A stretch of 64,000 bases of DNA from Acidimicrobiia bacterium (GTDB lineage Bacteria; Actinomycetota; Acidimicrobiia; Spongiisociales; ZC4RG35), in NCBI GenBank assembly GCA_015488325.1, contig WFOA01000010.1:15945-79944 (forward strand). Direction: 5' to 3'. Positions 5,201 through 31,554 of this stretch are shown one piece after another. Every line of letters starts with the position of its first letter. Within the stretch, counting starts at the first letter, position 1. Made by a program: the position numbers and the translations under genes. The notes beneath the pieces are model-generated. The model did not search any database. It worked only from the letters and a program-made list of their open reading frames with translations, and was not told the origin of the DNA.

Positions 5201-5287
5201 CGAAACCCTCCACTCGTCCCCGTCGACACCTGTCGGACAGCGATGCACTCTAGCTTCCGCGCCTCCCCGGTCGAGGCCCAGTTCGGG

Positions 5288-6130
5288 TCAGAGTCGGCGG
5301 CCCCAGACCGCCAGGTCGAGGGAGGTGAGTTCCGACAGGTTACGGACCGACGCGTCGAGGCGGGCCGTCACCGACCCGGGAAGCGGCTGGTCCCGGGATT
5401 CCGCCCGCAGCCGTTCGGCCATCGGATCCCGGCGGAGCAGGAGGGGACGTACGAGCTTGCGGATCGCCCGGGGGGTGACCGGTTCGAGGCGCCGCAGCAG
5501 GCGGCTGTCGTACAGGCGCCTCATGAGGGGCGTGTAGTCGGGTTTGTCGGCGGTGACGTTCACGGCGACCCGGGGGTGGGGACTCGGCGGCAGATCCAGG
5601 AACGCCAGCACCTCGCTCCAGGCCGGATGCTCGCCGTCGACCAGATGTTCCATCTGGACGACCAGGAGCGCCTCGGTCCCGAACCGTTCGAGGAAGGGAG
5701 CCAGGGCCAGGTCGTAGAGGCTGCGGCGAACGTAGGGGTTGTCGGGTTCGGAGACGGCCTGGAGGAACGGTCGACGTTCCCTCCCATGATGCACTTCGTG
5801 CCGATAGTGGCTCCGCAGCCGGGTCTCCGGCTCCCGAAGCACACAGATGAGCCGCACCGACGGGCACATCTCGGCGATCCGAGCGGCGACCTCGGAGGCC
5901 ACCTGGGGGTCCGAGTACGCCACCGAAGCCTCCCCGGCGAGACCGTCGGTCGGGAACAGCGACCGGTAGCGCCGGTGGGCCCGGGAACCTGGCCCGTTGC
6001 CGGTGAGGAAGAACTCGGGTTCTTTCTCCCTGCACAGGATCGAACCCGACGCCTGCTGGAGCCACCGGAACAGGGCGGTGGTTCCCGATTTCATGGTGCC
6101 GACGATGATGAACTCGGGGTCGCGGCTCAT
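5288..6130 (-). CDS. Sulfotransferase family protein (PAPS-dependent)
   Basis: 5'-PSB-like P-loop FIIVGTMKSGTTALFRWL close to the N-terminus when starting at the ATG at 6130 (the track start at 6157 is TTG). About 280 aa, a typical size. Confidence 0.75.
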   Translation of the reverse strand: MSRDPEFIIVGTMKSGTTALFRWLQQASGSILCREKEPEFFLTGNGPGSRAHRRYRSLFPTDGLAGEASVAYSDPQVASEVAARIAEMCPSVRLICVLREPETRLRSHYRHEVHHGRERRPFLQAVSEPDNPYVRRSLYDLALAPFLERFGTEALLVVQMEHLVDGEHPAWSEVLAFLDLPPSPHPRVAVNVTADKPDYTPLMRRLYDSRLLRRLEPVTPRAIRKLVRPLLLRRDPMAERLRAESRDQPLPGSVTARLDASVRNLSELTSLDLAVWGRRL

Positions 6131-6203
6131 CTCAGGCTGACGGCTCCGAGGACCCAAACCGTAGACGGACCGCCTCCCCCGGAACTCCGGGCGTCGGGAA
6201 ATC

Positions 6204-10404: not shown

Positions 10405-11324
10405 AGCACCCGGTACCGCACCGAACCGACGAGACGTCCCAGGCGCAGCCCCGCCCCTTTGATCCATTCCCGTCGGCGGCGGGAGGAGACGACGAGGGGG
10501 AGACGAGCGACGAGCGACACGTAGGCCCGGAGCGTCGACAGCACCCCCGGATGGGGCATGTACTCGGCGCCGTAGACCCGGCGGGCGAGAGCCTGCTCGA
10601 CGCCCCACCGTACCCGTTGCCGCCACAGGGACCAGGCGTCGTCCCGGATCCGGTACCAGATCTCGGCGTCGGGGACCGACACGTACGCGAGGCCTCCTCG
10701 CTGCAGCCGCCACGACAGGTCGAGTTCGGAGAGGTGGGACGGATAGTCCTCTCGGAACCCTCCCAGGGCCCTCCACAGGTCGGCCCGCATGGCGAAGTTG
10801 GCGCTGGAGGCGTGGGATGCGGCCGCGGGCGACCGTCCCCAGGGCTGTGTGTCACGGTCGGGATGGTCGGAGGGATGCATGGGACCCGCGCCCGCAGGCG
10901 CCGACGCCAGGGCCTCGACGAACGCAGAGATCCACCTGGTCGACACCCGGTCGTCGGCGTCGCAGAAACAGAGGATGTCTGCGTCGGTGGACTTGGCGCC
11001 GATGTTGCGGGCAGCCGGGGATCCGACCGGTTCGGGAACGGAGATCACCTGGAGGGCGGGGAGGCGCTCTCGGAAGCCCTCGGCGACGGCGCGGGTACCG
11101 TCGGTCGACCCGTCGTCGACCACCACCACCTCCCAGGGACCTTCGTAGTCTTGGGCTTCGAGGGCTTCGAGCTGCTCGGCGAGATGACGGGCCGCGTTCC
11201 GGGCCGGGATCACGACGGCGACCCTCGGGTTGGGACCCGGCGGGCGGCTCACCTCCGAGAGATCCGGCACATCCCAGGGGGCGAGGTCGTCGAGGCCCAT
11301 ACGGTGAGGATACCGAGGGTCCAT
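10395..11324 (-). CDS. Glycosyltransferase family 2 (paralog of 12876..13739)
   Basis: PRVAVVIPARNAARHLAEQLEALEAQ ... VVVVDDGSTDGT ... CDADD motifs. ATG at 11324 has GGGGA 5 nt upstream; an alternative ATG lies at 11300. The C-terminus RYRVLYL matches the paralog's RYRVLVL. Confidence 0.8.
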   Translation of the reverse strand: MDPRYPHRMGLDDLAPWDVPDLSEVSRPPGPNPRVAVVIPARNAARHLAEQLEALEAQDYEGPWEVVVVDDGSTDGTRAVAEGFRERLPALQVISVPEPVGSPAARNIGAKSTDADILCFCDADDRVSTRWISAFVEALASAPAGAGPMHPSDHPDRDTQPWGRSPAAASHASSANFAMRADLWRALGGFREDYPSHLSELDLSWRLQRGGLAYVSVPDAEIWYRIRDDAWSLWRQRVRWGVEQALARRVYGAEYMPHPGVLSTLRAYVSLVARLPLVVSSRRRREWIKGAGLRLGRLVGSVRYRVLYL

Positions 11325-11433
11325 GCGGGTCCCCGACCGCGGGCTAGCCTGCCCCGCAGTCGTGACCGAGGGTGGAGTGGCGGACAGGGCGGAGATCCCC
11401 AGAGGAGACGAGGAGGGGCTGAAAGCCGGCGCG

Positions 11434-12897
11434 ATGGCGGGCGGTCGCTGGTCGGCGACCTCCAGCATCGGCCGTCAACTCGTCACCACCCTCGCCACCG
11501 TCGTCCTGGCTCGGCTCCTCGCCCCCGCCGACTACGGGATCGCGGTGGCCGTCACCGTCATCCTCGGCGTCTTCGAGCTGATGTCACAGTTCGGAATCGG
11601 CCAGTCCCTGGTCCGTCACCGTCGACTCGACCCCTCGACCACGTCGACGACGTTCTGGGCCTCGCTGATCATCGCCGGGGTGGTCTCGACCAGCGTCGTG
11701 GTGTTCGCCGACCCGCTGGGGAGCCTCATCGGCCAGGAGGCTCTGGGGCCGTTCCTCCGGCTGGCGGCGGTCGGGTTGGCGGTCTCGATGGCGGCTTCGG
11801 TGCCTGCAGGTCTGCTCACCCGGCAGATGGAATGGTCGAAGCTGACGATGATCCAGCTCGCCGGGTCGATCGTCCAGTTCTCGGTGGCGGTGGGGTTGGC
11901 GGCGACGACGGCGCTCGGGGCGTGGGTCCTCATCATCGGACGGGTGGCCGGGTCGGCCTTCCAGTTCGTCGGCCTCTTCTGGGCGGCACGGTGGACCCCG
12001 ACCTGGGAGTTCTCCCCGGCGGTGCTCCGCCGGGACCTCTCCTTCAACCTGGGGTTCTGGAGCACCTACGTCACCTCGTATGTGGCGAAGAACCTGGACT
12101 ACTGGGTGGTGGGCCGGCTGTTGGGGGCTGCCGTGCTGGGCGTCTATTACATCGCCTACGTGCTGCCGGTGCTCGTCCGCCAGCGCATCACCCGGGTCCT
12201 GGAGGGTGTCTTGTATCCGGTCATGGCACGGGTCGCCGACGACCGCCGCCGTCTCGAAGCCGTGTACGTCGAAGCCCTCGGGTTCTCCACCTTCGTCACC
12301 CTCCCGGCGGTGCTGGGCCTGGTCGCCGTCGCCGACCTCGTCGTCCCCCTGTTCTTCGGTACCCAATGGTCCGGGGCGGTGGCACCGATGCGGATCCTGG
12401 CGCTGGCGACCGCCTTCGACGCCCTCCTCCCCGTCGGCACCGCCCTGTTCCTGGCCCTCGGCCTCCCCGGCCGCAACGCCGTCATCACCACCTCCCGGGT
12501 GGTGACGATGGTCGTCGTCTTGGCCGTGGTGGCCGGGTCCCGGGACCTCACCTCGATCGCGTGGGCGGTCGCCGCCGGGTCGGTGACGGCCGTCGTCGTG
12601 GCGTTCCGCCTCGTCGTCCGCCGGGCCGGCGTGTCGCCCCGCTCCTTCGCATCCGCGGTGCTCGCCCCGAGCGTCACCTCGGCGGCGATGCTCGGTGTCG
12701 TCGTCGCGACCCGCCAGTTCACCTTCGTCGGCGGCCTGGGCGACCTCCCCCAACTCGTCGTCGCCGTCGTCGTAGGGATCGTCGCCTACACGGTGCTCGG
12801 GATGGGACTGTTCCGCCGCCGATACCGGAAGTATTTCGCCGACCTCGCAACCCTGGTCGGCTTCGACCGGATCCGTCAGAGGACCAGCACCCGATAG
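11434..12897 (+). CDS. wzx: Wzx-type polysaccharide flippase (MOP/MATE-like polysaccharide biosynthesis protein)
   Basis: About 12 predicted TM segments; N-terminus MAGGRWSATSSIGRQLVTTLATVVLARLLAPADYGIAVAVTVILGVFELMSQFGIGQSLV typical of O-antigen/EPS flippases. The track start at 11323 would overlap the divergent GT2 start codon. Confidence 0.8.
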   Translation: MAGGRWSATSSIGRQLVTTLATVVLARLLAPADYGIAVAVTVILGVFELMSQFGIGQSLVRHRRLDPSTTSTTFWASLIIAGVVSTSVVVFADPLGSLIGQEALGPFLRLAAVGLAVSMAASVPAGLLTRQMEWSKLTMIQLAGSIVQFSVAVGLAATTALGAWVLIIGRVAGSAFQFVGLFWAARWTPTWEFSPAVLRRDLSFNLGFWSTYVTSYVAKNLDYWVVGRLLGAAVLGVYYIAYVLPVLVRQRITRVLEGVLYPVMARVADDRRRLEAVYVEALGFSTFVTLPAVLGLVAVADLVVPLFFGTQWSGAVAPMRILALATAFDALLPVGTALFLALGLPGRNAVITTSRVVTMVVVLAVVAGSRDLTSIAWAVAAGSVTAVVVAFRLVVRRAGVSPRSFASAVLAPSVTSAAMLGVVVATRQFTFVGGLGDLPQLVVAVVVGIVAYTVLGMGLFRRRYRKYFADLATLVGFDRIRQRTSTR

Positions 12898-17500: not shown

Positions 17501-18679
17501 TCACCGCCCCAGCACCTCGTGGTAGAGACGCTCCAACTCGGCGGCCACTCGGTCCGGGCGAAATCCCTGCTCCACCACCCGTTTGGCGGCGGCACCGAGG
17601 CGGGCCCGCAGCTCGGCGTCTTCCGCCAGCTCGACGATCGCCGCCGCCAGCGCCTCAGGGTCCTGGGGTGGGACCGTGAGACCGCTTTCGCGGTCGGTGA
17701 CGACGTCGCTCATCGGGGGAACACCGGTGACGACGACCGCGCATTCGGCGGCCATCGCCTGCAGCATCGCCACCCCGATCCCTTCGAACAGGGAAGGGAA
17801 GGCGAAGACGTCGGCGGCCGCCAACAGGTCGACGACGTCACGGCGGTGCCCGAGGAACCGCATTCGGTCGCCGAGACCGGACGCGGCGAGCCGTCTCCGG
17901 AGGTCGTCGCTGAGACTGCCCGGCGTGCCGGCGACCAGGGCCCGAGCGGTGGGGATCCGGTCCACCACGAGCCGCATCGCTTCGATCAGGTAGCGCTGAC
18001 CCTTCTGGGGGGCTTCCCGGCCGATGTTCACCACGAGGAAGGTGTCCTCTGCCCAACCCATCTCCCCGAGGATCCGCTTCCGGGCGGCCTCACGGCCGCC
18101 GACGGGGACGAGATCGGCCGGGTCGACCGCCCGGGGGATGACGGCGATCCGTTCGTCGGCGATACGAGCGGTGTCTCTCCACGACCGAGCCACCTCCCCG
18201 GAGATGGCATGGAAACGGGTGACCAGCCGCATGGTGGTGGTGTCCACCACCTGGTAGGCCCGCAGCTTCCACCAGGCCAACGGGTTGTCGAGGGATTTCA
18301 CCTTCTCGTTGGCGATGTTCACCAGGGTCTCCACCACAGGAACGCGGAGGCGACGCCCGGCGAACCGGGCCGCCAAGGCGGCGTCGGCGAGGGAGCAGTG
18401 GACGAGGTCCGGCTCCAGATCGCGAAGTACACGGATGAGGTCACGGGCCCGGGTCCAGGGCCCGGGACGGGCGACACCCTTCGGGTACAGGTGGACGACC
18501 GGCACGGTCGAAGGCACTTCGTCCCTTCGCGACGGATCGACTTCGTAGAGGCAGACGAGGCTGTGGCGCAGCTCGGGGTCGGTGAACGACCGGAGGTTGG
18601 TGACGAGTTGCTGTTCGGCCCCCCCGGTCGCCGCGATCGAGTTGATGACGTGGACGACATGCGCCCGTCTGCGCGTCAT
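17501..18679 (-). CDS. Glycosyltransferase family 4
   Basis: Real start MTRRRAHVVHVINSIAATGGAEQQ (ATG at 18679). C-terminal EGIGVAMLQAMAAECAVVVTGVPPMSDVV GT4 motif. The upstream extension to 19072 is junk that overlaps the deacetylase gene. Confidence 0.8.
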   Translation of the reverse strand: MTRRRAHVVHVINSIAATGGAEQQLVTNLRSFTDPELRHSLVCLYEVDPSRRDEVPSTVPVVHLYPKGVARPGPWTRARDLIRVLRDLEPDLVHCSLADAALAARFAGRRLRVPVVETLVNIANEKVKSLDNPLAWWKLRAYQVVDTTTMRLVTRFHAISGEVARSWRDTARIADERIAVIPRAVDPADLVPVGGREAARKRILGEMGWAEDTFLVVNIGREAPQKGQRYLIEAMRLVVDRIPTARALVAGTPGSLSDDLRRRLAASGLGDRMRFLGHRRDVVDLLAAADVFAFPSLFEGIGVAMLQAMAAECAVVVTGVPPMSDVVTDRESGLTVPPQDPEALAAAIVELAEDAELRARLGAAAKRVVEQGFRPDRVAAELERLYHEVLGR

Positions 18680-18846
18680 GGTTCGGTGCGCTCCCGGCTC
18701 GGTGTCCTCCTCCGCCTCGACGAACCCGGCGTCTGCGGGCACCGAACCGTTCGCGTCGCTCCCCCGTCCGGCATGGGTTCCCCTCTCGAACGTCCACCGC
18801 GCATTATCGGACGCCGACGGGTTCAGGACCAAGTTCCCCACCTCGG

Positions 18847-19629
18847 TCACGGGCCCCGGTACCCCGACACCAATGACCGCACCCGATCTTCCAGGCTGAG
18901 GCCGCCACGCACCCGGGGCCCGAAGAACACCCGGCCGTCGGCCGCCTGCACGGGGATGCGGGGGATGCGGTGGCGGTCGGTTCCGGGCCCGACCGGGCCG
19001 GGACGTCCCAGCACGGCCGTCTCGTATCGCCGCCGGACCACCCCGTCGGCCCCCTCCGACCAGTAGCCCCACGGGTAGGCGAAATGGCGGGGCCGGATCC
19101 CCAGGCGCCGCTCGATGAGCTCGTCGGAGGCGGCGAGCTCGGATTCGACCTGGTCGGGCGCCAAGGAGCGTAGGTCGACGTGTCGATGGGTGTGAGCGCC
19201 GATCGTGACGAGGCCCGACGCCACCATCTCCTCCACCTGTTCCCAGCGCAACGGGCGGCCGTCGGGGTAGAGGGGCGTTCCCGTCTCGACGGGTTCGGTG
19301 GTGAGGAACAGGGTGAAGGGCATCTGCAAGTCGCGCAGCAGCGGGAACGCGTGCTCGTAGACATCGACGTAGCCGTCGTCGAAGGTGATCGCGACCTCCA
19401 GGGTCTCGCCATGACCGCCATCGACGGCCTGTTCGAAGGGGAGCACCCGGGCGTGCTCCGCCAACCAGGCGACATGGGCGCGAAACACCTCGGGGGTGAC
19501 GTCCATCTGGCGGGCGGATCCGCCCCCCACCTGGTGGTAGATGAGGATGCGGGGCCCGGCGACAGGCGAGAGGAGTGGGTCGGCCACGACCGCGGCCATC
19601 TTGAGGAGTCGCCGGATGAGGTGCGCCAT
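18847..19629 (-). CDS. Polysaccharide deacetylase (NodB-homology, CE4)
   Basis: TFDDGY motif and His-containing motifs (IGAHTHRHVDL). Start ATG at 19629 lies immediately after the Wzc-like stop. Confidence 0.8.
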   Translation of the reverse strand: MAHLIRRLLKMAAVVADPLLSPVAGPRILIYHQVGGGSARQMDVTPEVFRAHVAWLAEHARVLPFEQAVDGGHGETLEVAITFDDGYVDVYEHAFPLLRDLQMPFTLFLTTEPVETGTPLYPDGRPLRWEQVEEMVASGLVTIGAHTHRHVDLRSLAPDQVESELAASDELIERRLGIRPRHFAYPWGYWSEGADGVVRRRYETAVLGRPGPVGPGTDRHRIPRIPVQAADGRVFFGPRVRGGLSLEDRVRSLVSGYRGP

Positions 19630-19633
19630 GGCC

Positions 19634-22429
19634 TCAGCGATGGGACATCGGGGGGCCGAGGGCGAGGAGCTCCTCGTCGGTGAGGACCGGCTGCGCCAGG
19701 AGCCCGAGACGCTGGACCGGCGCCAGGTTGGGGCGGATCCCCTCGGACCAGTCGGGGTCCCAGCCGAGGGGCTGCTCGTTGGCGGACCGCCACGGGTAGT
19801 AGATGCGGGCTCCGTCGATCGTCCCCTCGTAGAGCCAGCCGAGACTGATCTCGAAGTACCGGACCTCTTCGATCTGCTCTTGGAGGGCGGCGGCCGTCTC
19901 GGCCTGGTTCCGTTTCGCCGCCGCCCGTTGCTTGCGGTCCAGACGCTCGATCACGGCCTTCACGTAGTCGCCCGCCAGGTGGTCGAGGGCGTCACGGTCG
20001 AACCGGGGGGCGTAGACGAACACGTTGACGGCGCCCCGCTGGCTGGCCAGATGCCAGATCACCGGCGCCCGTTCGGTCGTGGCCACGTGGATCCGGAAGA
20101 AGTTGGCGACGAGCCACTCGTCGATGGTGGGGGCCTGCCCCCCTCCGACGGCCCCGATGATCCGGGTGATGTGACGTTCCAACTCGGCGGCGGCTTTGGT
20201 GCCGAGCTCGGCCCGCAACCCGGCGAGCAGGTAGGACCCCACCGTCCGGTATCCCCGAGCCTCGTCGAGGGGAAGGAAGTCCGGGATCTGGGAGAAACCG
20301 TGTTCGGTGGCGGCGACCGGCGAGGACATGAGGAGGTTCTCGACCCGGGAGACGAGGAAGTTGGCGACGGCCGGGTAGGCACGCTCCGGCTCGGCCTCCG
20401 CCAGACGCTCGACCAGCTCCAAGGCGACGGATTCGTCGACCGCGGCCGTTCCCGTCGGCGGCGGGATCGGCCCCCCGGCCGGAGGCTCGACGGTCGGTTC
20501 GACGACCTGGCCGTCACCGGTCTCGGCGTCGGCGTCCGCCGGGACCGCCGTGGCCTCCACGGTGGGCTCCGGCTCGGGTGTCGGCTCCGCCACCTCCCCT
20601 GGCGGGGCCTCGGTGTCGGTCACCGCTTCGACCAGGGTCCCCAGGTCGGCCTGGGCGGGCTCGAACGTGGAGATCCGGCGGGGACGGGGCGCCGGTGCAC
20701 GGGCGGGTTCGGCGGCCGGTTCCCGGGGGGCGACCGCCGGAGCGACCGGCCGACCCCGTCCGAGACCGGCCGCGGGCATGACGCCCCGCCGGTCCACGAA
20801 CACCGCTCCGAGGAACTTGGCTCCCCGATCTTCGAGATCCGCCACCCGGTCGGCGAGCTCGGTGCGAGAGACCCGACCCGGGACGAGGGTGACGACGGCG
20901 TAGTCGACCCGTTGCACCAGCTCCTGAGCGGTCGCCACGGTGAGGTCGTTGGCGGCGAACAGCACCAGGTCGAACCGGGCCGAAGCCACCCGGATGAGGT
21001 CGGCGAGGAGGGGGCGGGCCAGCAGCTCGGAGGGGTCTTCGGTGGGTGAGCCGGCCTGCACGGAGATGAGGTTGGGTCGGACCGGCCGGGCCTGCGCCAG
21101 TATCCGGGCGAGGGCGGCGTCGTCGCCTTCGGGGATCTCGAGCAGCGTGGCGAAGTCGACGTCGCCCCGGTACTCCACCATGTTGGTGTCGTGGGTGAAG
21201 TCGGCGTCCACCAACAGGACCGAACGCCCTGCCCGGGCGAACGCCACCGCCAGGTCGGCGGCGAGGGCGTGGACGTCCTCGGGTTGCGTGCCGAGGCCCG
21301 TGACCGCCACCGCCGCCCCCAAGCCTCCGATCCGACCCTGCAGCCCGGCACGGAGCCCCTGGACGGCACGTTTTCTCCGCCCCCCTTCTTCCGCGTCGTA
21401 CCAGATGCTCCGCCGTGACGGTTTGCGGATCGGTACGGCCGCGAGGAGGGGAAGCGGAGCCAGGTCGGCCCCGGTCCAGACCGGCTTGAACAGGCGGTCG
21501 ACGACCAGCAAGCCCGCCACAGCGAGGACGAGGCCGACCAGCAGGCCGATGGCTCCGGCCGCTCCCCGTGAGACGGGGTCCGGTGTCTGGTCCACGACGT
21601 CGATGACCTCGGACACGACCGGGCCCGACAGCGCCGCCTGACGGAGGAACAGCTCCTGGAACGAAGCCTCCAACTCTTCGTATTCCCGTTCGAGGGCCCG
21701 GCGCAGGGTCTGCTCCGCGCTGAACTCGGAGACCGTCGGCGGCGGGCCGAGCCGGTCGAGCTGGGCGTTGACGGTGGCGATCGCCAGGGTCGTACGGTCG
21801 AGATCCGCCTGAACTTCGTCTTCGGCTCGGTCGCTGCCGACCAGCAGCTCCTTTTGGTATTCGAGGGCGTCGGCCCGCAGCGACTCGAGGAGCGCCTGCA
21901 GTTCGGCCCGCTCCTCCTCGTCGGGGTCGACGGCGACAGGCGAGCCGATGGCCTCGATCCGGGCCCGCACGTCCGCCATCCGGGCGGAGATCTGTTCGAG
22001 TTGGGTCTGGATCTGCTCCAGGACGTTGGGGGGCTGGCCTTCGAGATACCGGGACCGCAGCTCGCCGGCCCGGGCCTGCGCCTCCTCGGTGCTCGACCCT
22101 TCGGCGACGAAGACGAGGGCGCCTCGATCGACGTCGCTGAAGATCTCCCAGGAGGGGTTGGCCTCGAGCAGGTCGGCGTTCACTTCGAGGGCGAAGGCGA
22201 GGGCCTCTTCGAGACGGGCCTGGGCGAAGTCTCGGGACACACCCGACGGGTTGTCTTCGCTCTCGACGCTGGCGACGACGGTGACCGGGGCCTCCGCCCG
22301 GATCACCGGGGTCAGGGAGGCGTTCCTCCAGGCGGCGCCGAACACGCCGGCGGCGAAGCCGAGCACGGCGAACACCACCACCCAGGGCCAGCGGGCCCGG
22401 AGGACACGAAGGGTGCGGGTCAGGTCCAA
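19634..22429 (-). CDS. Wzc/Wzz-like polysaccharide co-polymerase (PCP2a topology) with degenerate P-loop ATPase domain and a large unassigned C-terminal domain
   Basis: TM1 MDLTRTLRVLRARWPWVVVFAVLGFAAGVF, long coiled-coil-rich periplasmic segment, TM2 AAGAIGLLVGLVLAVAGLLVVD. The cytoplasmic BY-kinase-like domain has its Walker A replaced (VAVTGLGTQPEDV, no GKS) while Walker A' VLLVDADF and Walker B-like FDLVLFAAND are retained. There is no C-terminal Tyr cluster. Instead a Pro/Glu-rich linker is followed by a domain of about 340 aa that I could not assign. Likely TTG start. The other overlapping frame (20514..22643) is Arg-rich junk. Confidence 0.7.
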   Translation of the reverse strand: MDLTRTLRVLRARWPWVVVFAVLGFAAGVFGAAWRNASLTPVIRAEAPVTVVASVESEDNPSGVSRDFAQARLEEALAFALEVNADLLEANPSWEIFSDVDRGALVFVAEGSSTEEAQARAGELRSRYLEGQPPNVLEQIQTQLEQISARMADVRARIEAIGSPVAVDPDEEERAELQALLESLRADALEYQKELLVGSDRAEDEVQADLDRTTLAIATVNAQLDRLGPPPTVSEFSAEQTLRRALEREYEELEASFQELFLRQAALSGPVVSEVIDVVDQTPDPVSRGAAGAIGLLVGLVLAVAGLLVVDRLFKPVWTGADLAPLPLLAAVPIRKPSRRSIWYDAEEGGRRKRAVQGLRAGLQGRIGGLGAAVAVTGLGTQPEDVHALAADLAVAFARAGRSVLLVDADFTHDTNMVEYRGDVDFATLLEIPEGDDAALARILAQARPVRPNLISVQAGSPTEDPSELLARPLLADLIRVASARFDLVLFAANDLTVATAQELVQRVDYAVVTLVPGRVSRTELADRVADLEDRGAKFLGAVFVDRRGVMPAAGLGRGRPVAPAVAPREPAAEPARAPAPRPRRISTFEPAQADLGTLVEAVTDTEAPPGEVAEPTPEPEPTVEATAVPADADAETGDGQVVEPTVEPPAGGPIPPPTGTAAVDESVALELVERLAEAEPERAYPAVANFLVSRVENLLMSSPVAATEHGFSQIPDFLPLDEARGYRTVGSYLLAGLRAELGTKAAAELERHITRIIGAVGGGQAPTIDEWLVANFFRIHVATTERAPVIWHLASQRGAVNVFVYAPRFDRDALDHLAGDYVKAVIERLDRKQRAAAKRNQAETAAALQEQIEEVRYFEISLGWLYEGTIDGARIYYPWRSANEQPLGWDPDWSEGIRPNLAPVQRLGLLAQPVLTDEELLALGPPMSHR

Positions 22430-24360
22430 ACCGTCGAAACCTCGGGTTCTGGGGTGAGGACGATCGTCTCGTCGCCGCCCCCAGTATGCCGCGCCAGCGC
22501 CCGCAACATGTCGACGACGTCCTCCAACGCCCCTTTGCGGGCGGCCCGCTCCAGCATCTCGACCCCGTCGGAGAGGGTGGTGACCCCCGGCCGAGGCGGA
22601 TGGGCGATCGAGATCTTCGGGTGCTCCGACGGCTCGAGGGCACCTTCGGCGAGGACCTCCACCATCTTCTCGCCCGGCCGGACCCCGCTGACGACGACTT
22701 CGATGTCGCGGCCGGGGACGAGTCCGGCGAGGCGGATCAGACGCCGAGCCAGGTCGGCGATCCGGATCGGCTCGCCCATGTCCAGCACGAACACCTCGCC
22801 GCCTTCGGCGAGGGCGGCGGCCTGGAGGACGAGCTGGACCGCCTCGTCGACCGTCATGAAGTACCGGGTCATGCTGGGGTCGGTGAGCGTGACCGGCCCG
22901 CCCTTCTTGATCTGCTCGACGAAGGTGGGCACGACACTGCCGCGGCTGCCGAGGACGTTCCCGAACCGCACGGCGGTGTAGGTGCAGCCGTCGGCACGCA
23001 GGTCGGCGGCCTGGACGAGCATCTCGGCGACCCGCTTGGTGGCGCCCATCACCGAGACGGGATCCACCGCCTTGTCGGTGGAGATCAACACGAACCGCTC
23101 CGCCCCGACCTGGGTGGCGATGTCGATCATGTTCCGGGTGCCGATCACGTTGGTCAGCACCGCCTCGTCCGGGAACCCTTCGAGGATCGGTACGTGTTTC
23201 AGCGCCGCCGCATGAAAGATGACCTGAGGCCGGTACGGGGTGACACGTCGCGCCAACATGTCGGCGTCCCGCACGTCGGCGAGGATCGGCGTGATCTCGG
23301 CGTCGGGTCCGCAGCCCAGCACCGTCTCGTGGAGGTGGGTCTCGTCGTTGTCGAGCGCCAGCACCGTCTCCGGACCGAACCGGAGGACCTGACGGACGAT
23401 CTCGGAACCGATCGAGCCTCCGGCCCCGGTGACGAGGACCCTTCTGCCCCGCAAGAGGCCCGCCACCGCGGCCAGGTCCGTCGAGACGGTGGCTCGAGGC
23501 AGCAGGTCGGTGAGTTCGATGTCTCGGACATCGACCGCGCCGGCGGAACCTTCCATCACCCGATGGGCGACGGGGAGGATCCGCAGCCGCACGTCGACGT
23601 CGGTGCAGAGGTCGACGACCCTCCTGCTGAGGTAGTCGTCGTCGGCCACGACGATCACCTGCTCGGCTCCGTACCGCTCGATCACGTCGTGCAGTTCGTC
23701 GAGGTCCCCCAAGATGGGCAGTCCGGCCAGACGGCGGACACTGTCGGCGCCTCCGGTCGAGACGAACCCGATGATGTCGATCTCACCGCCGTTGCTCGTC
23801 ACCTCACGGACGAAATCCGCCGCCGCCCGGCAGGTGCCGACGACGAGGGTGGGGAGCGGCCGCCCACCGGTGATGGTCCGTTTGAACGAGAACAGCCGCG
23901 ACCGGAACCGCACCAGGCCCATCCCGGCGAGGGCGAGCAGCGGGCCCATGATCGCCACCGACAGCGGGATCGGCACCAGGCCGTCGGAGGTGACGTCCAC
24001 CCAGAGCACCCAGCCGGTGACGGCCATGCCGACGACGACGTTGGAGGCGATCACCTGTTTCGCCTCGGAGATCGAGGCGAACTCCCAGACGTGCCCGTAG
24101 GCGCCGAAGACGACGTTGGCCGCGAGGTGCAGCAACAACAGCAGGGGCATCGTCCGGGTGAGGCCCGTCCACCAGGTGAGGGGGTCGGTGATCCCGGTGT
24201 CGAGCATCCGCAGCCCCAGGGCGATCGTATAGGCGCCGACGACGATGGCCAGGTCGACCACGGCGAAGGCGATGTCCGCCCGCACCCTGGAAGCGGCCGC
24301 GGCCAGCGGCCTCCACCATCGTCCAGCCCTTGTCCCCAAAACAGATCCGGTGTCTGCCAC
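22420..24360 (-). CDS. Membrane-anchored nucleotide-sugar 4,6-dehydratase/epimerase (CapD/WbpM/PglF family)
   Basis: N-terminal 4 TM segments, then VLVTGAGGSIGSEI Rossmann motif and a CapD-like C-terminus. Proposed GTG start at 24360 is preceded by GGGAGG plus 5 nt; the track start at 24417 would make the 17-bp palindrome coding. Confidence 0.85.
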   Translation of the reverse strand: MADTGSVLGTRAGRWWRPLAAAASRVRADIAFAVVDLAIVVGAYTIALGLRMLDTGITDPLTWWTGLTRTMPLLLLLHLAANVVFGAYGHVWEFASISEAKQVIASNVVVGMAVTGWVLWVDVTSDGLVPIPLSVAIMGPLLALAGMGLVRFRSRLFSFKRTITGGRPLPTLVVGTCRAAADFVREVTSNGGEIDIIGFVSTGGADSVRRLAGLPILGDLDELHDVIERYGAEQVIVVADDDYLSRRVVDLCTDVDVRLRILPVAHRVMEGSAGAVDVRDIELTDLLPRATVSTDLAAVAGLLRGRRVLVTGAGGSIGSEIVRQVLRFGPETVLALDNDETHLHETVLGCGPDAEITPILADVRDADMLARRVTPYRPQVIFHAAALKHVPILEGFPDEAVLTNVIGTRNMIDIATQVGAERFVLISTDKAVDPVSVMGATKRVAEMLVQAADLRADGCTYTAVRFGNVLGSRGSVVPTFVEQIKKGGPVTLTDPSMTRYFMTVDEAVQLVLQAAALAEGGEVFVLDMGEPIRIADLARRLIRLAGLVPGRDIEVVVSGVRPGEKMVEVLAEGALEPSEHPKISIAHPPRPGVTTLSDGVEMLERAARKGALEDVVDMLRALARHTGGGDETIVLTPEPEVSTVWT

Positions 24361-24389
24361 CAGAACCTCCCAGCTCTCGCATCCCCACT

Positions 24390-24406
24390 TGACCCCGTCG
24401 GGGTCA
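24390..24406. promoter_or_regulatory. 17-bp perfect palindrome TGACCCCG-T-CGGGGTCA in the divergent promoter region between the capD-like operon and the epimerase operon
   Basis: Read directly from the sequence. It lies outside coding if the capD-like gene starts at the RBS-supported GTG at 24360. Confidence 0.5.
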
Positions 24407-24613
24407 GTCGGATACATCCTACCCGCGGACCGACATCATCAAATGGGCCGTCCGGCCCATTCCTGGGTCCCGGGACTCATTGTCGACCGCGACCGGAAAG
24501 TCCCACTTCCCGCCGCCCGATGCACCGTCTAGCCTGGCCCGGGGCGGCGCCGCATCGGCGCCAGTTCGCCACCACATCACGACTCGGTGCGAGCCAGGGA
24601 GGTTCGAAGAGCT

Positions 24614-26585: not shown

Positions 26586-27526
26586 CCGGCCCGAGCATCC
26601 GCCTCGCCCGACCCGACGATCTCCCCCAGATCCTCGACGTCCTGCGGGCCGCCCTGGGCGAGACGCCCCTGTTGCGACGCACCCCGGAGCTGTGGCGTTG
26701 GAAACACGTCGAGAACCCCTTCGGGCCGTCTCTGGTCCTCGTCGCCGAAGCCGACGGCCGGGTCGTCGGGGTACGGGCCTTCATGCGTTGGGAGTTGGAG
26801 ACGCCCGACGGTGACACCCTCCGGTGCGTCAGGGCGGTCGACACCGCCACCCATCCCGACTATCTGCGACGGGGGATCTTCCGGCGTCTGACCGAGTCGG
26901 CGATCGAATACGCCCGGGACGAAGGGGTGGATCTGGTCTTCAACACCCCCAACGCCAAGTCGGGGGCGGGATACCTGAAGATGGGGTGGCGGACCGTCGC
27001 CCGACTCGGGGTGATCGTCCGATGGCGGACGGGTCGGGTCGCACCCCTCGATTCCGATACCGTGCCCCGCCTCGACGACCATGTGGCGGCGGTCGACCCG
27101 CTGGATCCGCTGCCCCCGGCCAGACGGGGACACGGTCTCAGGACTCCCCGCCGCGACGCCTACCTCCACTGGAGGTTCTCACAGCATCCGACGGCACGCT
27201 ACGGAGCCGTCCGGTTCGGATCCGGGACCGCCGTGGTGCGACCCAACGTCCGTGCAGGACGCCGGGAGCTGGTGGTGTCGGACGTCCTCGGTGACGCCAC
27301 CGCGGGGCTGTTCCGGGAGGTGGCGAAGAGGAACCGCTCCCGCTACGTGGCCACCTGGTTCTCCCCGGCGGCACCGGAACGGCGCATAGCCCGACGTGCC
27401 CTGTACGCTCCGGTTCCGGGACTGCGGACCCTCACCCTCGTGGCCCGACCGCTACGGTCCCTCCCCGTGGACGTCTTCGATCTGGGGAACTGGGATCTGG
27501 CGGTGAGCGACCTGGAGTTGCTGTGA
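26582..27526 (+). CDS. GNAT-family acetyltransferase with C-terminal extension
   Basis: Start ATG at 26582 overlaps the upstream stop (ATGA). Acetyl-CoA binding region VVGVRAFMRWELE ... RRGIFRRLTESAIEYARDEGVDLVFNTPN. The in-frame N-terminal extension to 26474 is junk. Confidence 0.7.
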   Translation: MTGPSIRLARPDDLPQILDVLRAALGETPLLRRTPELWRWKHVENPFGPSLVLVAEADGRVVGVRAFMRWELETPDGDTLRCVRAVDTATHPDYLRRGIFRRLTESAIEYARDEGVDLVFNTPNAKSGAGYLKMGWRTVARLGVIVRWRTGRVAPLDSDTVPRLDDHVAAVDPLDPLPPARRGHGLRTPRRDAYLHWRFSQHPTARYGAVRFGSGTAVVRPNVRAGRRELVVSDVLGDATAGLFREVAKRNRSRYVATWFSPAAPERRIARRALYAPVPGLRTLTLVARPLRSLPVDVFDLGNWDLAVSDLELL

Positions 27527-28869
27527 GACAGCAGATCGTCCTCGGGATCGGCGCCGGGTTGACGGCACTGGTCGCGTTCGTCCTCGCCGCCGGCGCCGTC
27601 CCCCTCCACCTCGTGGTGCTGGCGGTGGCCGGCCTCTCCGTCACCTACCTGGTGGGTCGGGCGATGGCGACGGACTTCGACCGGTCCTGGCTCCCCGGTC
27701 TCCTGGTGGCCGGACTGGCCGCGAAGCTGGTCGGGGCCTGGGTCCGGTACTTCGTCCTCATCGAGGTGTACGGCGGTGTGGGTGACGCCCTCGGATACCA
27801 CAGCCGAGGCCTCCGCCTCGCCGAGATGTTCCGGGCGTTCACGGTCCCCACCTTCGAGGACGCCGGTTTCGGGTCGACCGGCACCCGGTTCGTCTCCTGG
27901 TTCACGGGTCTCGTCTACACGCCGTACCAGCCCGAGCCCCTCGGCGGTTTCTGGCTGTTCTCGCTGATCGCGTTCGCCGGCACGGTTCTCTTCTACGCGG
28001 CGGTGCGACGCAGCCTGCCACCGTCGACGTGGCGGCGGTTCCTCATCATGCTGATGTTCTGGCCGACGCTGCTGTACTGGCCGTCGTCGGTGGGCAAGGA
28101 AGCCCTGATCCTGGGCTTCGGAGGGGTGGTGACCTACGGGGCGGCGCGGCTGTTCGAGCGGTACCGCCTGAGCTGGCTGCTCGTCATCGGCGCGGCGATG
28201 GCCGTCATAGGCATCATCCGGGTCCACGTCGCCGGCCTGTTCGCCGGAGCGATCGTCGTCGGCATGCTCGTCTCCGCCGCACCTCGCGGTGCAGGCCCGA
28301 AGAGTCGCCGCCTCCTCCTCATGGCGGCCGGGTTCGCGGCGCTCATCCCCCTGGCCGCCCTGGTCTCGAGGGAGTTCGGCATCGACCCCAGCGGCCCCCT
28401 CGACCCCTCCGCCCTCGAGCCGGTCCTGTCCGAGGTGGCCCGCACCACCGGCCAGGGAGGCTCGGCGGTGCAGGGCGGGGTGATCCGCTCCATCGCCGAC
28501 GTCCCGGCCGGTGTCCTCAAGGTGTTGTTCCGTCCCCTCCCCTACGAGGCGTCCAACATCCAGATGCTGGCGGCCAGCGTCGAGGGCGTGGCGTTGCTCC
28601 TGTTGATCCTCTCCCGCACCCCGTGGATGATCGGGAACCTGCGTCGGCTGCGCCGCTTCCCGTATCTGATCTTCGCCGCCACGTTCTCGGCCGGTTTCGT
28701 GGTGGCCTGGAGCGCGATCCTCAACCTGGGGATCATCGCCCGCCAGCGGGCCCTCGTCATCCCCTTCGTCCTGACCCTCGTCGCCGGCCTCGGCTGGCCC
28801 CTGGCCGCCGGCGAGGAGCCGGCTTCCGCTGCCGAACCCGACCGGGACGCCGCCCTCAACCCCACTTGA
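27523..28869 (+). CDS. Polytopic membrane protein, candidate Wzy-type glycan polymerase
   Basis: 448 aa, at least 10 hydrophobic TM segments and one large extracytoplasmic loop. Placed in the operon after GT4 and GNAT and next to wzx-pathway genes; no specific motif recognised. Confidence 0.5.
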   Translation: MRQQIVLGIGAGLTALVAFVLAAGAVPLHLVVLAVAGLSVTYLVGRAMATDFDRSWLPGLLVAGLAAKLVGAWVRYFVLIEVYGGVGDALGYHSRGLRLAEMFRAFTVPTFEDAGFGSTGTRFVSWFTGLVYTPYQPEPLGGFWLFSLIAFAGTVLFYAAVRRSLPPSTWRRFLIMLMFWPTLLYWPSSVGKEALILGFGGVVTYGAARLFERYRLSWLLVIGAAMAVIGIIRVHVAGLFAGAIVVGMLVSAAPRGAGPKSRRLLLMAAGFAALIPLAALVSREFGIDPSGPLDPSALEPVLSEVARTTGQGGSAVQGGVIRSIADVPAGVLKVLFRPLPYEASNIQMLAASVEGVALLLLILSRTPWMIGNLRRLRRFPYLIFAATFSAGFVVAWSAILNLGIIARQRALVIPFVLTLVAGLGWPLAAGEEPASAAEPDRDAALNPT

Positions 28870-29794
28870 GCGCGGCCCCCACGGCGCCGACCACCGCCAG
28901 CACCCCGGTGACCGCCGCCGCGCCCACCCCGGCCCACCACCAGGCGGCGACGACCGCGCCACATAGGAGCGCCTGCGCCCCGGCGGCCACGAACACGACC
29001 GTCGGCACGCTCCACCCCCGGTCGGCCAGCCGGTCGTAGAGATGGGACCGGTCCCCTTGGAACAGGGGCATCCCCGCCCTCCGCCGTCGCAGCACCGTCG
29101 AGACGAGGTCGACGAGGAACACGCCGAGCAACGAGCCGCCGGCGACCATCCCGACCACGTCTTCGCCTCCCAGCCGGACACCGGAGGCCACGAGCATCAG
29201 GCCGACCAGGTAGCTGCCGTTGTCCCCGAGGAACACCCGCGCCGGATGCCAGTTGAAGACACCGAACCCGACCAAGGCGGCACCGAGGGCGACTTCGGCA
29301 CCGAGATCCGCTCCCGACGTCGACCCGACCAGCCCCATCGCCACCAGCGTCACCAGGGCCACCGACGCGACCAACCCGTCGAGGCCGTCGAAGAGGTTCA
29401 CGGCGTTGATCCCCACCACCACGCCGGCGGCGACGAGGGCACCGCCGACGGGTCCGACCCCGAGAGCCCAGGCCACGAGCACCCCGGCGACGGCTTCGAC
29501 GGCGAGCCTGAGCACCGGGGGCAGGCCTCTGCGGTCGTCGACCAGCCCCAACGCGACCACCAGCCCTGCCGCGACCATCAGCCTCGGGGAGGGACGTCCG
29601 GTGAGTATCGACGAGACGACGAGGGCGCCGTACAGCCCCACCCCTCCGAGGGGCACCGCCGGGACCGTGTGGACTTTCAGGGCCTCCCCGGGTCGGTCGA
29701 CGATCCCCAGTCGGGGGCCGAGCGCCGGTGCGATCGCCGACCACCCGGCGGAGACGACTGCGGCGGCGAGCCCTCCGGCGATCAGGCCGACCAC
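28856..29794 (-). CDS. Polyprenyl-phosphate N-acetylhexosamine-1-phosphate transferase (WecA/MraY family, GT4 phosphoglycosyl transferase)
   Basis: Conserved INAVNLFDGLDGL and VFLGDNGSYLVG motifs. Proposed GTG start at 29794 has GGAGGT 7 nt upstream; the long Arg-rich extension to 30619 is junk overlapping the next gene. Confidence 0.8.
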   Translation of the reverse strand: MVGLIAGGLAAAVVSAGWSAIAPALGPRLGIVDRPGEALKVHTVPAVPLGGVGLYGALVVSSILTGRPSPRLMVAAGLVVALGLVDDRRGLPPVLRLAVEAVAGVLVAWALGVGPVGGALVAAGVVVGINAVNLFDGLDGLVASVALVTLVAMGLVGSTSGADLGAEVALGAALVGFGVFNWHPARVFLGDNGSYLVGLMLVASGVRLGGEDVVGMVAGGSLLGVFLVDLVSTVLRRRRAGMPLFQGDRSHLYDRLADRGWSVPTVVFVAAGAQALLCGAVVAAWWWAGVGAAAVTGVLAVVGAVGAALKWG

Positions 29795-31554
29795 ACCAGC
29801 ACCTCCGAGGTCTCGCCGCGGTGGACTTCGATCGTCCCCACCGGTTCGAACCCCATCTTCCGGTAGGCGGCGATCGCCGCCGAGTTGTCGGCGCCCACGA
29901 CCACCTTCACCTTCCCCACGCGGCTCATCGCGGTGAGGAGCTCCCGTCCCAGAACGGTGCCGATCCCTCGACCGCGCCGATCCGCCACCACCGCCATCGA
30001 CACCAGTTCGGCGTCGACGCCGACGTCGCCGCCTTCGTAACGGAAGGTCTCCCAGGCCCGCCGCAGCATCGTCGGGCGCAGCAACCGAGGTGCGGCCGCC
30101 ACGACCGCCCGGATCCCGAAGCGACGGACGAAGGAACGGTAGAAGGCGCCGATGTCGGCGACGCCGGCGACGAACCCGACCGGCCCGCACTCGTCCTCGG
30201 CGACGAGCACGACGGCGTCTTCGTGTTCCACGAGCGCACGGTAGAGGAGTGTCATGAACCGGCGTCCCAGACGGGGCAGGAAACCGGTGGAGATCGCTTG
30301 CGCGTGCAGGACGGCCAGGAAACGGGTGTCCCCTTCGTCGGCCCGCCGGACCCGGACCTCGCCGGAAGGTCCGTCGCCGAGGGCGGCCGCCAGCCGGTCC
30401 AGGCCTTTGGTGAGGGCGAGCTCCCGATAGGTGGAGAGGACGATCTCGACGACCCTGTCCTCGTCGAAGAGCCGTCTGGCCCGTTCGCGCCCGGCCCGGC
30501 CCATCCGAGAGGCCAGCTCCGGGTCGTCCCCGATGGTCCGGATCGCCCGGGCCAGGGACCGGGCGTCGGAGACGGGGACGAGGAGGCCGTTCTCGCCGTC
30601 GGCGACGACCTCCCGGCATCCCCGGATGTCGGTGGCGACGATGGGCAGGCCCATGGCGGCAGCCTCCATCGCCGCCCGGGGGAAGCCTTCACGGTGCGAC
30701 GGGAGCACGAACACGTCCATCGTCGGGTAGAGGGCATCGACGTCGGTGCGCATCCCCAGGAACCGGACGCCGTTCGCCTTCGCCCGTTCGATCATCGCGT
30801 CGCCGAGGTCGTCCGCCTTTTCGGGGTCCCGGGGCCCGATGCAGACCACCACGTACCGGTCGTCGAGGAGTCGGGCGGCCTCGAAGAGCTCCGGGTAGCC
30901 CTTCTCCGCCACCATCCGCCCCACCATGCCCACCACCACCGCGTCCGACGGGATGCCGAGCTCGGCACGCATCCGATCCCGATGGGACCGGTCGTACCGG
31001 GCGGGATCGAACCGGGCGAGGTCGACACCGTTGCCGAGATGCCGTGTCCGAGCCCGGGGTGCGAGACGCAGCCTGTGGGCCAGTTCGAGATCCTCCGCGC
31101 TCTGATAGAGCTCGGCGTCGGAGAACCGGGAGGCGACGAACTCCAGGGCGTAGACGACCAGGCGTTTCAGCGGTGGATCGTCGGGGGCCGCGTAGAAGCC
31201 GTGCACCGTGTTGACGACGACGGGCACGCCGGCCACACGGCCGAGGATCCGACCGTAGACGCCGGGTTTGGGGTTGTGGGTGTGCAGCACGTCCGGTCGG
31301 AGCCGCCTCAGCACCCTCCAGAGCTGGGCGGCTGCCCGCAGGTCGGCGCCGAGGCTCATCCCACGTGTCGACGCCGACAGTGCCACATGTTCGATGCCTG
31401 CCGCCTCCAGCTCGGCCACCCAGGGGCCGGGAGAGGAGATCCCCACCGACCGGATGTCCCTCTGGAGGGGTGCGAGGAGCTGGGGGAACACCAGGTAGCG
31501 GAGGGACAGGTCCACCGTCGTCAGGTGGGCGATCACCGGGCGCCGATCAGCCAT
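29782..31554 (-). CDS. Bifunctional glycosyltransferase family 4 / GNAT acetyltransferase fusion
   Basis: N-terminal about 380 aa GT4 (EGFPRAAMEAAAMGLPIVATDIRGCREVV). C-terminal about 200 aa GNAT-like (FLAVLHAQAIS ... GRGIGTVLGRELLTAMSRVGKVKVVVGADNSAAIAAYRKMGF). Confidence 0.8.
   Translation of the reverse strand: MADRRPVIAHLTTVDLSLRYLVFPQLLAPLQRDIRSVGISSPGPWVAELEAAGIEHVALSASTRGMSLGADLRAAAQLWRVLRRLRPDVLHTHNPKPGVYGRILGRVAGVPVVVNTVHGFYAAPDDPPLKRLVVYALEFVASRFSDAELYQSAEDLELAHRLRLAPRARTRHLGNGVDLARFDPARYDRSHRDRMRAELGIPSDAVVVGMVGRMVAEKGYPELFEAARLLDDRYVVVCIGPRDPEKADDLGDAMIERAKANGVRFLGMRTDVDALYPTMDVFVLPSHREGFPRAAMEAAAMGLPIVATDIRGCREVVADGENGLLVPVSDARSLARAIRTIGDDPELASRMGRAGRERARRLFDEDRVVEIVLSTYRELALTKGLDRLAAALGDGPSGEVRVRRADEGDTRFLAVLHAQAISTGFLPRLGRRFMTLLYRALVEHEDAVVLVAEDECGPVGFVAGVADIGAFYRSFVRRFGIRAVVAAAPRLLRPTMLRRAWETFRYEGGDVGVDAELVSMAVVADRRGRGIGTVLGRELLTAMSRVGKVKVVVGADNSAAIAAYRKMGFEPVGTIEVHRGETSEVLVWSA

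Follow-up and report, generated by a model that had tools for sequence, protein, structure and literature searches.

The gene described here lies on the minus strand (19634..22429) of a 64,000-nucleotide stretch of contig WFOA01000010.1 (positions 15,945 to 79,944; assembly GCA_015488325.1, Acidimicrobiia bacterium), which is called the window below and to which all coordinates refer. It encodes a protein of 931 amino acids (aa; TTG start at 22429, stop codon 19634-19636) in which a polysaccharide co-polymerase (PCP) of the PCP-2a type, an apparent pseudokinase domain with the fold of bacterial tyrosine kinases (BY-kinases), and a domain of the type found at the C-terminus of PglX from bacteriophage exclusion (BREX) systems are joined in a single chain, called the fusion protein below. 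This structural and evolutionary identification is regarded as nearly certain. In an AlphaFold2 model built on 45 family members, the domain cores had a predicted local distance difference test (pLDDT) score of 90 or higher, and the chain was divided into transmembrane (TM) helix 1 (14-37), a helical ectodomain, TM helix 2 (288-314), an alpha/beta domain (340-548), a disordered region (550-664), and a second folded domain (665-925); the predicted template modelling (pTM) score of the full-length model was low (0.44).

All features of the gene are on the minus strand. TM helix 1 (residues ~14-37, 22319..22390; helix 14-37 in the model and segment 12-30 by hydropathy) is followed by an extracytoplasmic, mostly helical PCP domain (residues 38-287, 21569..22318), which was matched to Wzc by Foldseek and ends in a conserved TPxPxS motif, and then by TM helix 2 (residues 288-314, 21488..21568), identified by both model and hydropathy. 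A Pro/Gly-rich motif before or overlapping the second TM helix is a hallmark of PCP-2a proteins. The family consensus in this region was DLTPxPxSPxxNGxxGLxxG, with T282, G295, and G299 conserved at a level of 90% or more across the 45 aligned members and P283 and S287 invariant among the four closest sequences. Full-length Wzc (PDB 7nhr and others) was matched by the model in Foldseek with an E-value of 2e-19 over ~680 columns, and canonical PCP/BY-kinases were reached by the family profile at E-values of 1e-28 to 1e-11. With all structural features of the class present, the fusion protein is a Wzc-type PCP-2a polysaccharide co-polymerase. An earlier note, made from the sequence alone, had proposed the PCP2a architecture (TM1, periplasmic domain, TM2, BY-kinase-like domain), which was confirmed by the model, hydropathy, and the Foldseek match to Wzc; its co-polymerase reading is likewise supported by fold (7nhr, above), by sequence (including the eps_fam match given below and the BY-kinase PCPs down to 1e-28), and by the Wzx/Wzy context of the gene.

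Compared with Wzc of E. coli (PDB 7nhr, 3la6), the order of the parts is the same (TM1, helical ectodomain, TM2, cytoplasmic P-loop BY-kinase fold), a Pro-rich motif precedes TM2, and the gene likewise lies inside a Wzx/Wzy polysaccharide cluster. Unlike Wzc, the fusion protein is without the Walker A Lys and Ser, the Walker B Asp, and the Tyr-rich tail, its oligomerisation motif is changed from ExxRxxR to xxxQxxR, its ectodomain is shorter, a 115-aa linker and a 268-aa domain are added at its end, and no Wzb-type phosphatase is encoded near the gene. The host is presumably monoderm and would therefore be without Wza, unlike the Wzc system.

The juxtamembrane segment and the domain of BY-kinase fold occupy residues 315-548 (fold 340-548; 20786..21487). 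The domain was matched by NCBIfam eps_fam (E 7e-15), below the curated cutoff (55 vs 108 bits), and in Foldseek the kinase domains of Wzc, CapAB, Etk, and BceF were matched with TM-scores of 0.67-0.81. For the catalytic motifs, 55 family members were aligned with ten canonical BY-kinases from the databases (P0005-P0014); S. aureus CapB served as a column guide, and the conclusions on motifs rest on P0005-P0014 in the same alignment. The Walker A loop (residues 376-387, VTGLGTQPEDVH, 21269..21304) is degenerate, with the catalytic Lys replaced by Val386 and the following Ser/Thr by His387; GK[S/T] was present in 10/10 of the canonical kinases and in 0 of ~55 clusters of the fusion family, in which the P-loop is shortened and unconstrained in sequence. 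In the Walker A' remnant (residues 404-414, VLLVDADFTHD, 21188..21220) the DxD pair (D408, D410) is kept and the Arg is lost, and across the family DxD is likewise retained (D408 at 90% or more) and the Arg/Lys missing. In the Walker B remnant (residues 486-496, FDLVLFAANDL, 20942..20974) the catalytic Asp is replaced by Ala492, and in the family this position is occupied by V, A, or G, leaving only the hydrophobic strand; an acidic residue is often found three positions past the lost Asp. No Tyr occurs in residues 549-663, and the linkers of 47 family members hold 0-2 Tyr, which are not clustered.

Since these losses are shared by ~55 clusters of relatives, the cytoplasmic domain is read as a pseudokinase, and the alignment supports this status for the whole family, no defining feature of an active BY-kinase being intact. 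In the six-frame scan of the window, no further BY-kinase-like domain was found, and no tyrosine phosphatase gene was found among the ~50 open reading frames (ORFs) scanned. Several statements of the earlier note agree with these data, namely that the Walker A is degenerate (the aligned Lys column holds Val386, and no canonical GxxxxGK[ST] was found), that the C-terminal tyrosine cluster is absent, that no separate BY-kinase or phosphatase gene is visible, and that the protein is of a pseudokinase type, which now extends to the family. Its statement that Walker A' and B-like motifs remain was right for the DxD of Walker A', and has to be corrected for the lost Arg and for Walker B.

The best preserved part of the domain is not catalytic. 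Helix alpha2 carries a remodelled oligomerisation motif (residues 351-363, RRKRAVQGLRAGL, 21341..21379) in which the canonical ExxRxxR is changed to xxxQxxR; in the family the Glu position varies, and in 52/52 members Gln (Q357) stands in place of the first Arg and the second Arg (R360) is retained. The canonical EX2RX2R motif lies on alpha2 of BY-kinases (PMC9800525). The pairs R352-K353 and W343-Y344, ahead of or within the alpha2 region, are also invariant, so that this helix is still under strong selection. Segment 343-360 (21350-21403; W343-Y344-D345, R352-K353, Q357, R360) holds six of the eleven invariant columns among the 45 aligned members, is the segment of the whole protein richest in such columns, and is more conserved than any of the vestigial catalytic motifs. 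It corresponds to the region where CapB is activated by CapA and where EcpK is modelled in contact with EpsV.

The part beyond the pseudokinase had been described in the earlier note as a domain of ~340 aa that could be assigned to no family. It was found to consist of two elements, a disordered Pro/Ala/Glu-rich linker (residues 549-663, 20441..20785; pLDDT <50 for 550-664), which carries a charge of +3 in its proximal part and of -14 in its distal part, and a folded domain of 268 aa (residues 664-931, 19637..20440; net charge -11). This domain could be assigned by its homology to the C-terminal region of BREX-1 PglX/BrxX. Linkers in the family are of low complexity, are 42-299 aa long, and have an acidic distal half in 42/47 members.

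Single-sequence searches of the C-terminal part gave nothing in Pfam or the PDB; its relation to PglX emerged only from profiles and from the NCBIfam and PADLOC models. The NCBIfam models for PglX of BREX-1, -5, and -6 were matched by the domain at their C-terminal ends (E 3e-10), the BREX-1 match covering only positions 1049-1169 of 1210 with 38.6 bits against a cutoff of 500, and among the matches in PADLOC 11/12 were PglX models. With a mixed profile, the solved PglX and BrxX structures were matched in the PDB at E 1.4e-14 and 7.6e-14, and in Foldseek BrxX/PglX were the only significant PDB matches of the domain. The homology between fusion and PglX covers ~210 residues that begin with a "DGIIPL"-type motif and end in a C-terminal "NIAPLQRLGLL", and the PglX C-terminal fold (helical part, three-stranded sheet, two-helix bundle) is present in the fusion domain, which has a helical hairpin of 2 x 27 residues.

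To determine the distribution of the domain, its profile was run exhaustively with HMMER against 1.84 billion representatives, and 669 matches were obtained, including 69 with E-values below 1e-30. The best 150 of the 669 comprised ~55 clusters with the TM/dead-kinase/C-domain architecture, at least 19 proteins of 1000-1730 aa with Eco57I/MmeI methyltransferase domains and the domain at the extreme C-terminus, and, for the remainder, fragments; all of these 150 that could be classified by architecture were either fusions or PglX-type methyltransferases. The curated cutoff of NCBIfam BREX-1 PglX was passed by 6/6 of the long proteins checked (520-635 bits vs 500), and the closest long PglX (P0058) lies inside a BrxA-BrxB-BrxC-PglX-GmrSD-PglZ-BrxL operon. 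Word-indexed homologue searches found only 3-4 relatives of the fusion, and a 45-sequence profile did not help, as the candidate list is crowded by canonical BY-kinases; this standard type of search badly under-counted the family of ~55 clusters.

The fusion protein itself is not a PglX and shares only the C-terminal fold with it. No methyltransferase family (Eco57I/MmeI type, NPPY) or target recognition domain was matched in it by Pfam or NCBIfam, and it differs from PglX/BrxX (Salmonella PglX residues 961-1225, PDB 8c45; E. coli BrxX C-terminal domain, PDB 9ewz) in having no methyltransferase, no target recognition domain, no N-terminal domain, and no BREX neighbours. The numbering of E. coli BrxX was mapped onto the domain alignment for 19 PglX methyltransferases, 36 split PglX pieces, and 57 fusions. 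The metal ligands D997 and D999 are Asp in 17/19 and 18/19 of the PglX proteins and in 28/36 and 31/36 of the split pieces, whereas both are variable in the fusions (Q714 and P716 in the query, the protein of the window); the third ligand, Y1113, is Tyr in 17/19 and 36/36 and mostly V, L, or I in the fusions, although the query and its clade keep it as Y822. A further position of the BrxX metal site, D1012, is R728 in the query. K1076, a DNA contact, is Lys in 16/19 and 31/36, in contrast to D, G, or E in the fusions (E786 in the query), and R1078, in the basic patch beside the DNA-contact residue K1077, is Arg in 19/19 and 36/36 and Glu in 37/57 of the fusions. The mean net charge of the domain is -11.8 in the fusions versus -1.4 in the methyltransferases. 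Common to the fusions and PglX are W772, F778, H781, P789, W792, H793, S796, and a Trp/Pro-rich tail; these shared residues are most simply taken, from the alignment, as fold-defining, since no other protein is shared by the two contexts.

A neighbour-joining tree was built from 106 domains; the 54 fusion copies among them grouped in one clade with no intruders, and the best identity of a fusion domain to a PglX piece was 40%. The monophyly of this clade points to a single capture event, from which the fusion domain descends, the source being the C-terminal region of a genuine type 1 BREX PglX methyltransferase. No genuine stand-alone gene for the domain was found, the short matches examined being split PglX pieces or a truncated fusion: three short proteins on longer contigs were rejected as stand-alone copies because they are C-terminal pieces of split PglX in BREX loci, and P0023 was rejected because it is a fusion truncated at a contig edge.

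Split PglX genes were seen in several BREX-1 loci (L007 4191-9071, also L008; L009 4737-8951; L006 946-1809). In L007, a 701-aa piece with the Eco57I domain is followed by a Fic-domain gene, a gap of ~830 bp without a called gene, a 356-aa ORF of the C-terminal region alone, AAA_21, PglZ, and BrxL. These may be disrupted pseudogenes, or the C-terminal region may be able to work as a separate subunit.

A motif with a single Tyr, R-L-x-x-Y-P-[FS]-P, was noted right after the pseudokinase in a subclade (11/45 aligned members; P0004 residues 579-586; L010 ~155-180), and may represent either a vestigial phospho-site or a short motif for docking. The protein of the window reads RRISTFEP at this position, with no Tyr, and the motif was dropped as a general phospho-site or docking motif of the family.

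BY pseudokinases are already known from EcpK of Myxococcus xanthus and HfsB of Caulobacter, which define a subfamily of PCP-2 proteins independent of phosphorylation for which a scaffold role has been proposed (PMC12004946). The fusion protein resembles them in its BY-kinase fold without catalytic motifs or Tyr cluster, in its association with Wzx/Wzy genes, and in a likely scaffold role, the likeness being assessed at the level of the shared fold. EcpK and HfsB are stand-alone proteins that pair with a kinase-less PCP and are needed for polysaccharide synthesis, whereas here the pseudokinase is fused to the PCP in the PCP-2a layout; a short basic helix forms the end of EcpK, whereas the fusion protein runs on into a long acidic linker and the PglX-type domain. 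For the C-terminal domain of E. coli BrxX, the authors of the structure found no significant structural homologue, and they deemed the domain unique to type I BREX (PMC11842806). In the literature searched, no paper was found that names Wzc together with BREX or PglX, and none with a PglX-domain fusion; polysaccharide or tyrosine-kinase contexts are not mentioned in a large comparative study of BREX. What is new is thus the domain architecture, which is undescribed, and the exaptation of a defence-system domain, and not the idea of a BY pseudokinase. With this family, the phosphorylation-independent class of PCP-2 proteins gains a fused (PCP-2a) form in Actinomycetota; the family also provides a non-BREX home for the highly conserved and unexplained PglX C-terminal fold and separates fold-defining residues, which are shared, from BREX-specific ones (metal site, basic patch). 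Such sharing of a domain would surprise specialists of both BREX and capsules.

The surroundings of the gene are those of polysaccharide synthesis. Directly upstream lies a gene for a CapD/WbpM-like membrane-anchored sugar-nucleotide dehydratase (Polysacc_synt_2; 22420..24417, minus strand), the stop of which overlaps the fusion start by 10 nt, and downstream, 4 nt past the fusion stop, lies a polysaccharide deacetylase gene (Polysacc_deac_1; 18847..19629, minus strand), which is a conserved neighbour. The CapD-like gene was directly upstream of the fusion in 5/6 contexts examined; the order of CapD-like dehydratase, fusion, and deacetylase was found in the window and in L002/L004, L005, L001, and L013, and in L015 the CapD-like gene is again directly upstream, the downstream gene being cut at the contig end. 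Several flanking glycosyltransferases are also conserved across the fusion loci. The fusion evolves faster than its neighbours, with 32% identity to the L005 protein against 56% for CapD, 49% for the deacetylase, and 66% for an epimerase. The fusion was found in two GTDB genomes, at 78% and 32% identity, and each of these is a metagenome-assembled genome of Acidimicrobiia. No BREX genes were found among the ~50 window ORFs scanned or in loci L002, L004, L005, and L013-L015.

The explanation held with moderate confidence to be the best overall is that of a phosphorylation-independent PCP-2a-type co-polymerase of a Wzx/Wzy pathway, in which the PglX-type domain acts as a protein-docking or regulatory module. 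Taken separately, independence from phosphorylation is likely, and a docking or regulatory role of the domain without DNA binding is plausible, if somewhat short of probable. By analogy with EcpK and HfsB (PMC12004946), the pseudokinase would act as an oligomeric scaffold under the membrane and determine the co-polymerase's oligomeric state without phosphorylation. The flexible linker would tether the acidic PglX-type domain, which would no longer bind DNA; because the metal ligands and basic DNA-contact residues are lost and the domain is strongly acidic, a module for protein interaction or regulation is suggested rather than a DNA binder. The domain might modulate how the pseudokinase ring assembles, acting at the site used by the negatively charged phospho-tail in Wzc, or might recruit a cytoplasmic enzyme of the pathway, for which the CapD-like dehydratase, being translationally coupled, appears to be the most obvious candidate partner. 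With a tethered folded module at the position of the phosphotyrosine tail, regulation would need neither kinase nor phosphatase. The suggestion in the earlier note that the phospho-tyrosine switch is replaced by another module stands as to the position of the module at the Tyr tail, and its functional replacement of the switch may be inferred only.

Several points weigh against this explanation. In the full-length model, with its low pTM, no defined contact is seen between the C-domain and the pseudokinase. The residues common to the fusion and PglX may be purely structural, so that the shared fold would say little about shared function, and oligomerisation of the pseudokinase is suggested by motif conservation alone. 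Loss of the known DNA contacts may be compatible with another site for nucleic acid or ligand, and the DNA-contact mapping covered K1076 and R1078, with further DNA contacts being known at R1145 and K1152 of the helix bundle. The most divergent fusion member (P0086) sits elsewhere, without a CapD neighbour.

Among the alternatives, the one that survives best is that the C-domain is a self-association or autoregulatory element only, with no external partner, which would control the ring electrostatically as a permanent mimic of the phosphorylated tail. Either a bundle would form between protomers from its two long helices, or the basic RRKR/alpha2 face of a neighbouring pseudokinase would serve as the docking site for the acidic linker and domain. 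Such a role fits with Wzc, in which negative charge on the tail drives disassembly of the ring and the alpha2 oligomerisation motif forms the interface (PMC9800525), and with the acidity of the distal linker and of the domain, the invariant R352, K353, and R360 of the alpha2 region, and the helical hairpin. However, PglX and BrxX are monomeric and their helix bundle does not dimerise (PMC12839542, PMC11341690), no interdomain contact was predicted in the model, and a conserved fold of 268 aa seems excessive as a charge mimic; a role limited to self-association is therefore considered rather unlikely.

A broader idea, which we consider unlikely, is that the PglX C-terminal region serves as a portable adaptor for docking on oligomers of inactive P-loop-fold proteins, which would be BrxB (inactivated P-loop/AAA+-like) or a BrxC assembly in BREX and the dead BY-kinase ring in the fusion family. 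If this were true, the fusion would be a natural separation-of-function module stripped of DNA and metal binding, and would reveal a role of the PglX C-terminal region in the assembly of the BREX complex and in the switch between methylation and restriction.

Capsules serve both as receptors for phages and as barriers against them. The PglX-type domain might keep a BREX-like job, binding DNA or docking BrxB, BrxC, or PglZ at the membrane, and so link polysaccharide synthesis with the sensing of phages or defence against them. All copies of the domain that lie outside the fusion family and whose context was examined belonged to a BREX PglX or, as split PglX pieces, to BREX loci, and the PglX C-terminal region has been implicated in binding of DNA and Ocr and possibly in contacts with BREX partners (PMC11341690, PMC11842806, PMC13326643). 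A retained BREX function is nevertheless disfavoured, and judged very unlikely, because the charge is reversed (acidic or neutral residues at the DNA contacts, no metal site, net charge ~-12) and because no BREX genes were found among the ORFs scanned in the 64-kb window or in the related loci; the neighbours are ordinary biosynthetic genes in conserved order.

It is highly improbable that NTPase or kinase activity persists in the cytoplasmic domain through non-canonical residues, with targets other than its own tail being phosphorylated. The retained DxD of Walker A' and the frequent acidic residue at +3 from the lost Walker B Asp could be read in this way, but the P-loop is shortened and unconstrained, the Walker A Lys and Ser/Thr and the Walker B Asp are missing in all ~55 clusters, the score remains far below the curated BY-kinase cutoff, and no phosphatase gene is nearby.

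The last alternative, that an assembly, frameshift, or gene-calling artefact joined a normal Wzc-like gene to a separate gene, has a negligible chance of being correct: spurious long open frames are common in high-GC DNA and the linker is of low complexity, but the architecture is identical in ~55 clusters at 50% identity and still present at 25-35% identity, 18/18 distinct close sequences (two closest clusters; independent NCBI, ENA, JGI, and Logan assemblies) are exactly 931 aa long, the GC content at third codon positions (GC3) is 0.89 throughout the ORF, and the one seeming stand-alone copy was the truncated fusion mentioned above. A frameshift or mis-join as the source of the ORF is excluded, and the single 931-aa ORF claimed in the earlier note is real, its N-terminus being kept down to 32% identity. 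The codon composition (GC3 0.89; GC2, the corresponding value for second positions, 0.49) is like that of the other real genes in this window of ~70% GC, and the plus-strand ORFs that overlap the gene are high-GC by-products. The frame is open for 451 codons upstream of 22429, with no ATG, GTG, or TTG there; an alternative upstream start was rejected, as this open stretch is the +1 frame of the CapD gene with its high GC3, and the TTG at 22429 was kept. The 10-nt overlap of this TTG with the TGA of the upstream gene is the same in the homologous loci L001 and L002.

The Wzx/Wzy-type cluster extends over ~8.2-33.7 kb of the window and contains a Wzx flippase (11323-12897), glycosyltransferases of the GT2 and GT4 families, RmlC, several epimerases and dehydratases, a nucleotidyltransferase, and GNAT acetyltransferases; housekeeping genes (SUF, glutamate synthase, sigma-70, fumarase) are located on its flanks, and a PF00953 initiating transferase is additionally encoded in the syntenic locus L002. 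A 448-aa protein encoded at 27523-28869 (plus strand), for which at least 8 TM segments are predicted and Pfam gave no match, is conserved in L002, L004, and L005 (83-36% identity) and is the probable Wzy-type polymerase of the cluster. The listed 523-aa GT4-family ORF at 17501-19072 (minus strand) overlaps the deacetylase gene by ~225 nt; its real start is probably internal, near 18670-18750, since the orthologue in L002 was called at 390 aa. Two further fusions of enzymes, both conserved in L002, L004, and L005, were a GT1-family glycosyltransferase with a C-terminal GNAT acetyltransferase (29782-31554, minus strand) and an NTP_transf_5 nucleotidyltransferase joined to a GT4/GT1 glycosyltransferase (31547-33658, minus strand).

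At the edge of the cluster, a sulfotransferase-family protein (5288-6157, minus strand) and an ATP-binding cassette (ABC) exporter with fused transmembrane and nucleotide-binding domains (6436-8226, plus strand) are encoded; sulfation of the polysaccharide is possible, as is the synthesis there of a second, ABC-dependent glycan. About 3 kb from the polysaccharide cluster, a 753-aa protein (2987-5248, minus strand) with three CWB2 cell-wall-binding repeats and Kelch/PD40 beta-propeller repeats was found, and since CWB2 domains tether proteins to secondary cell-wall polymers, the product of the cluster could serve as its anchor.

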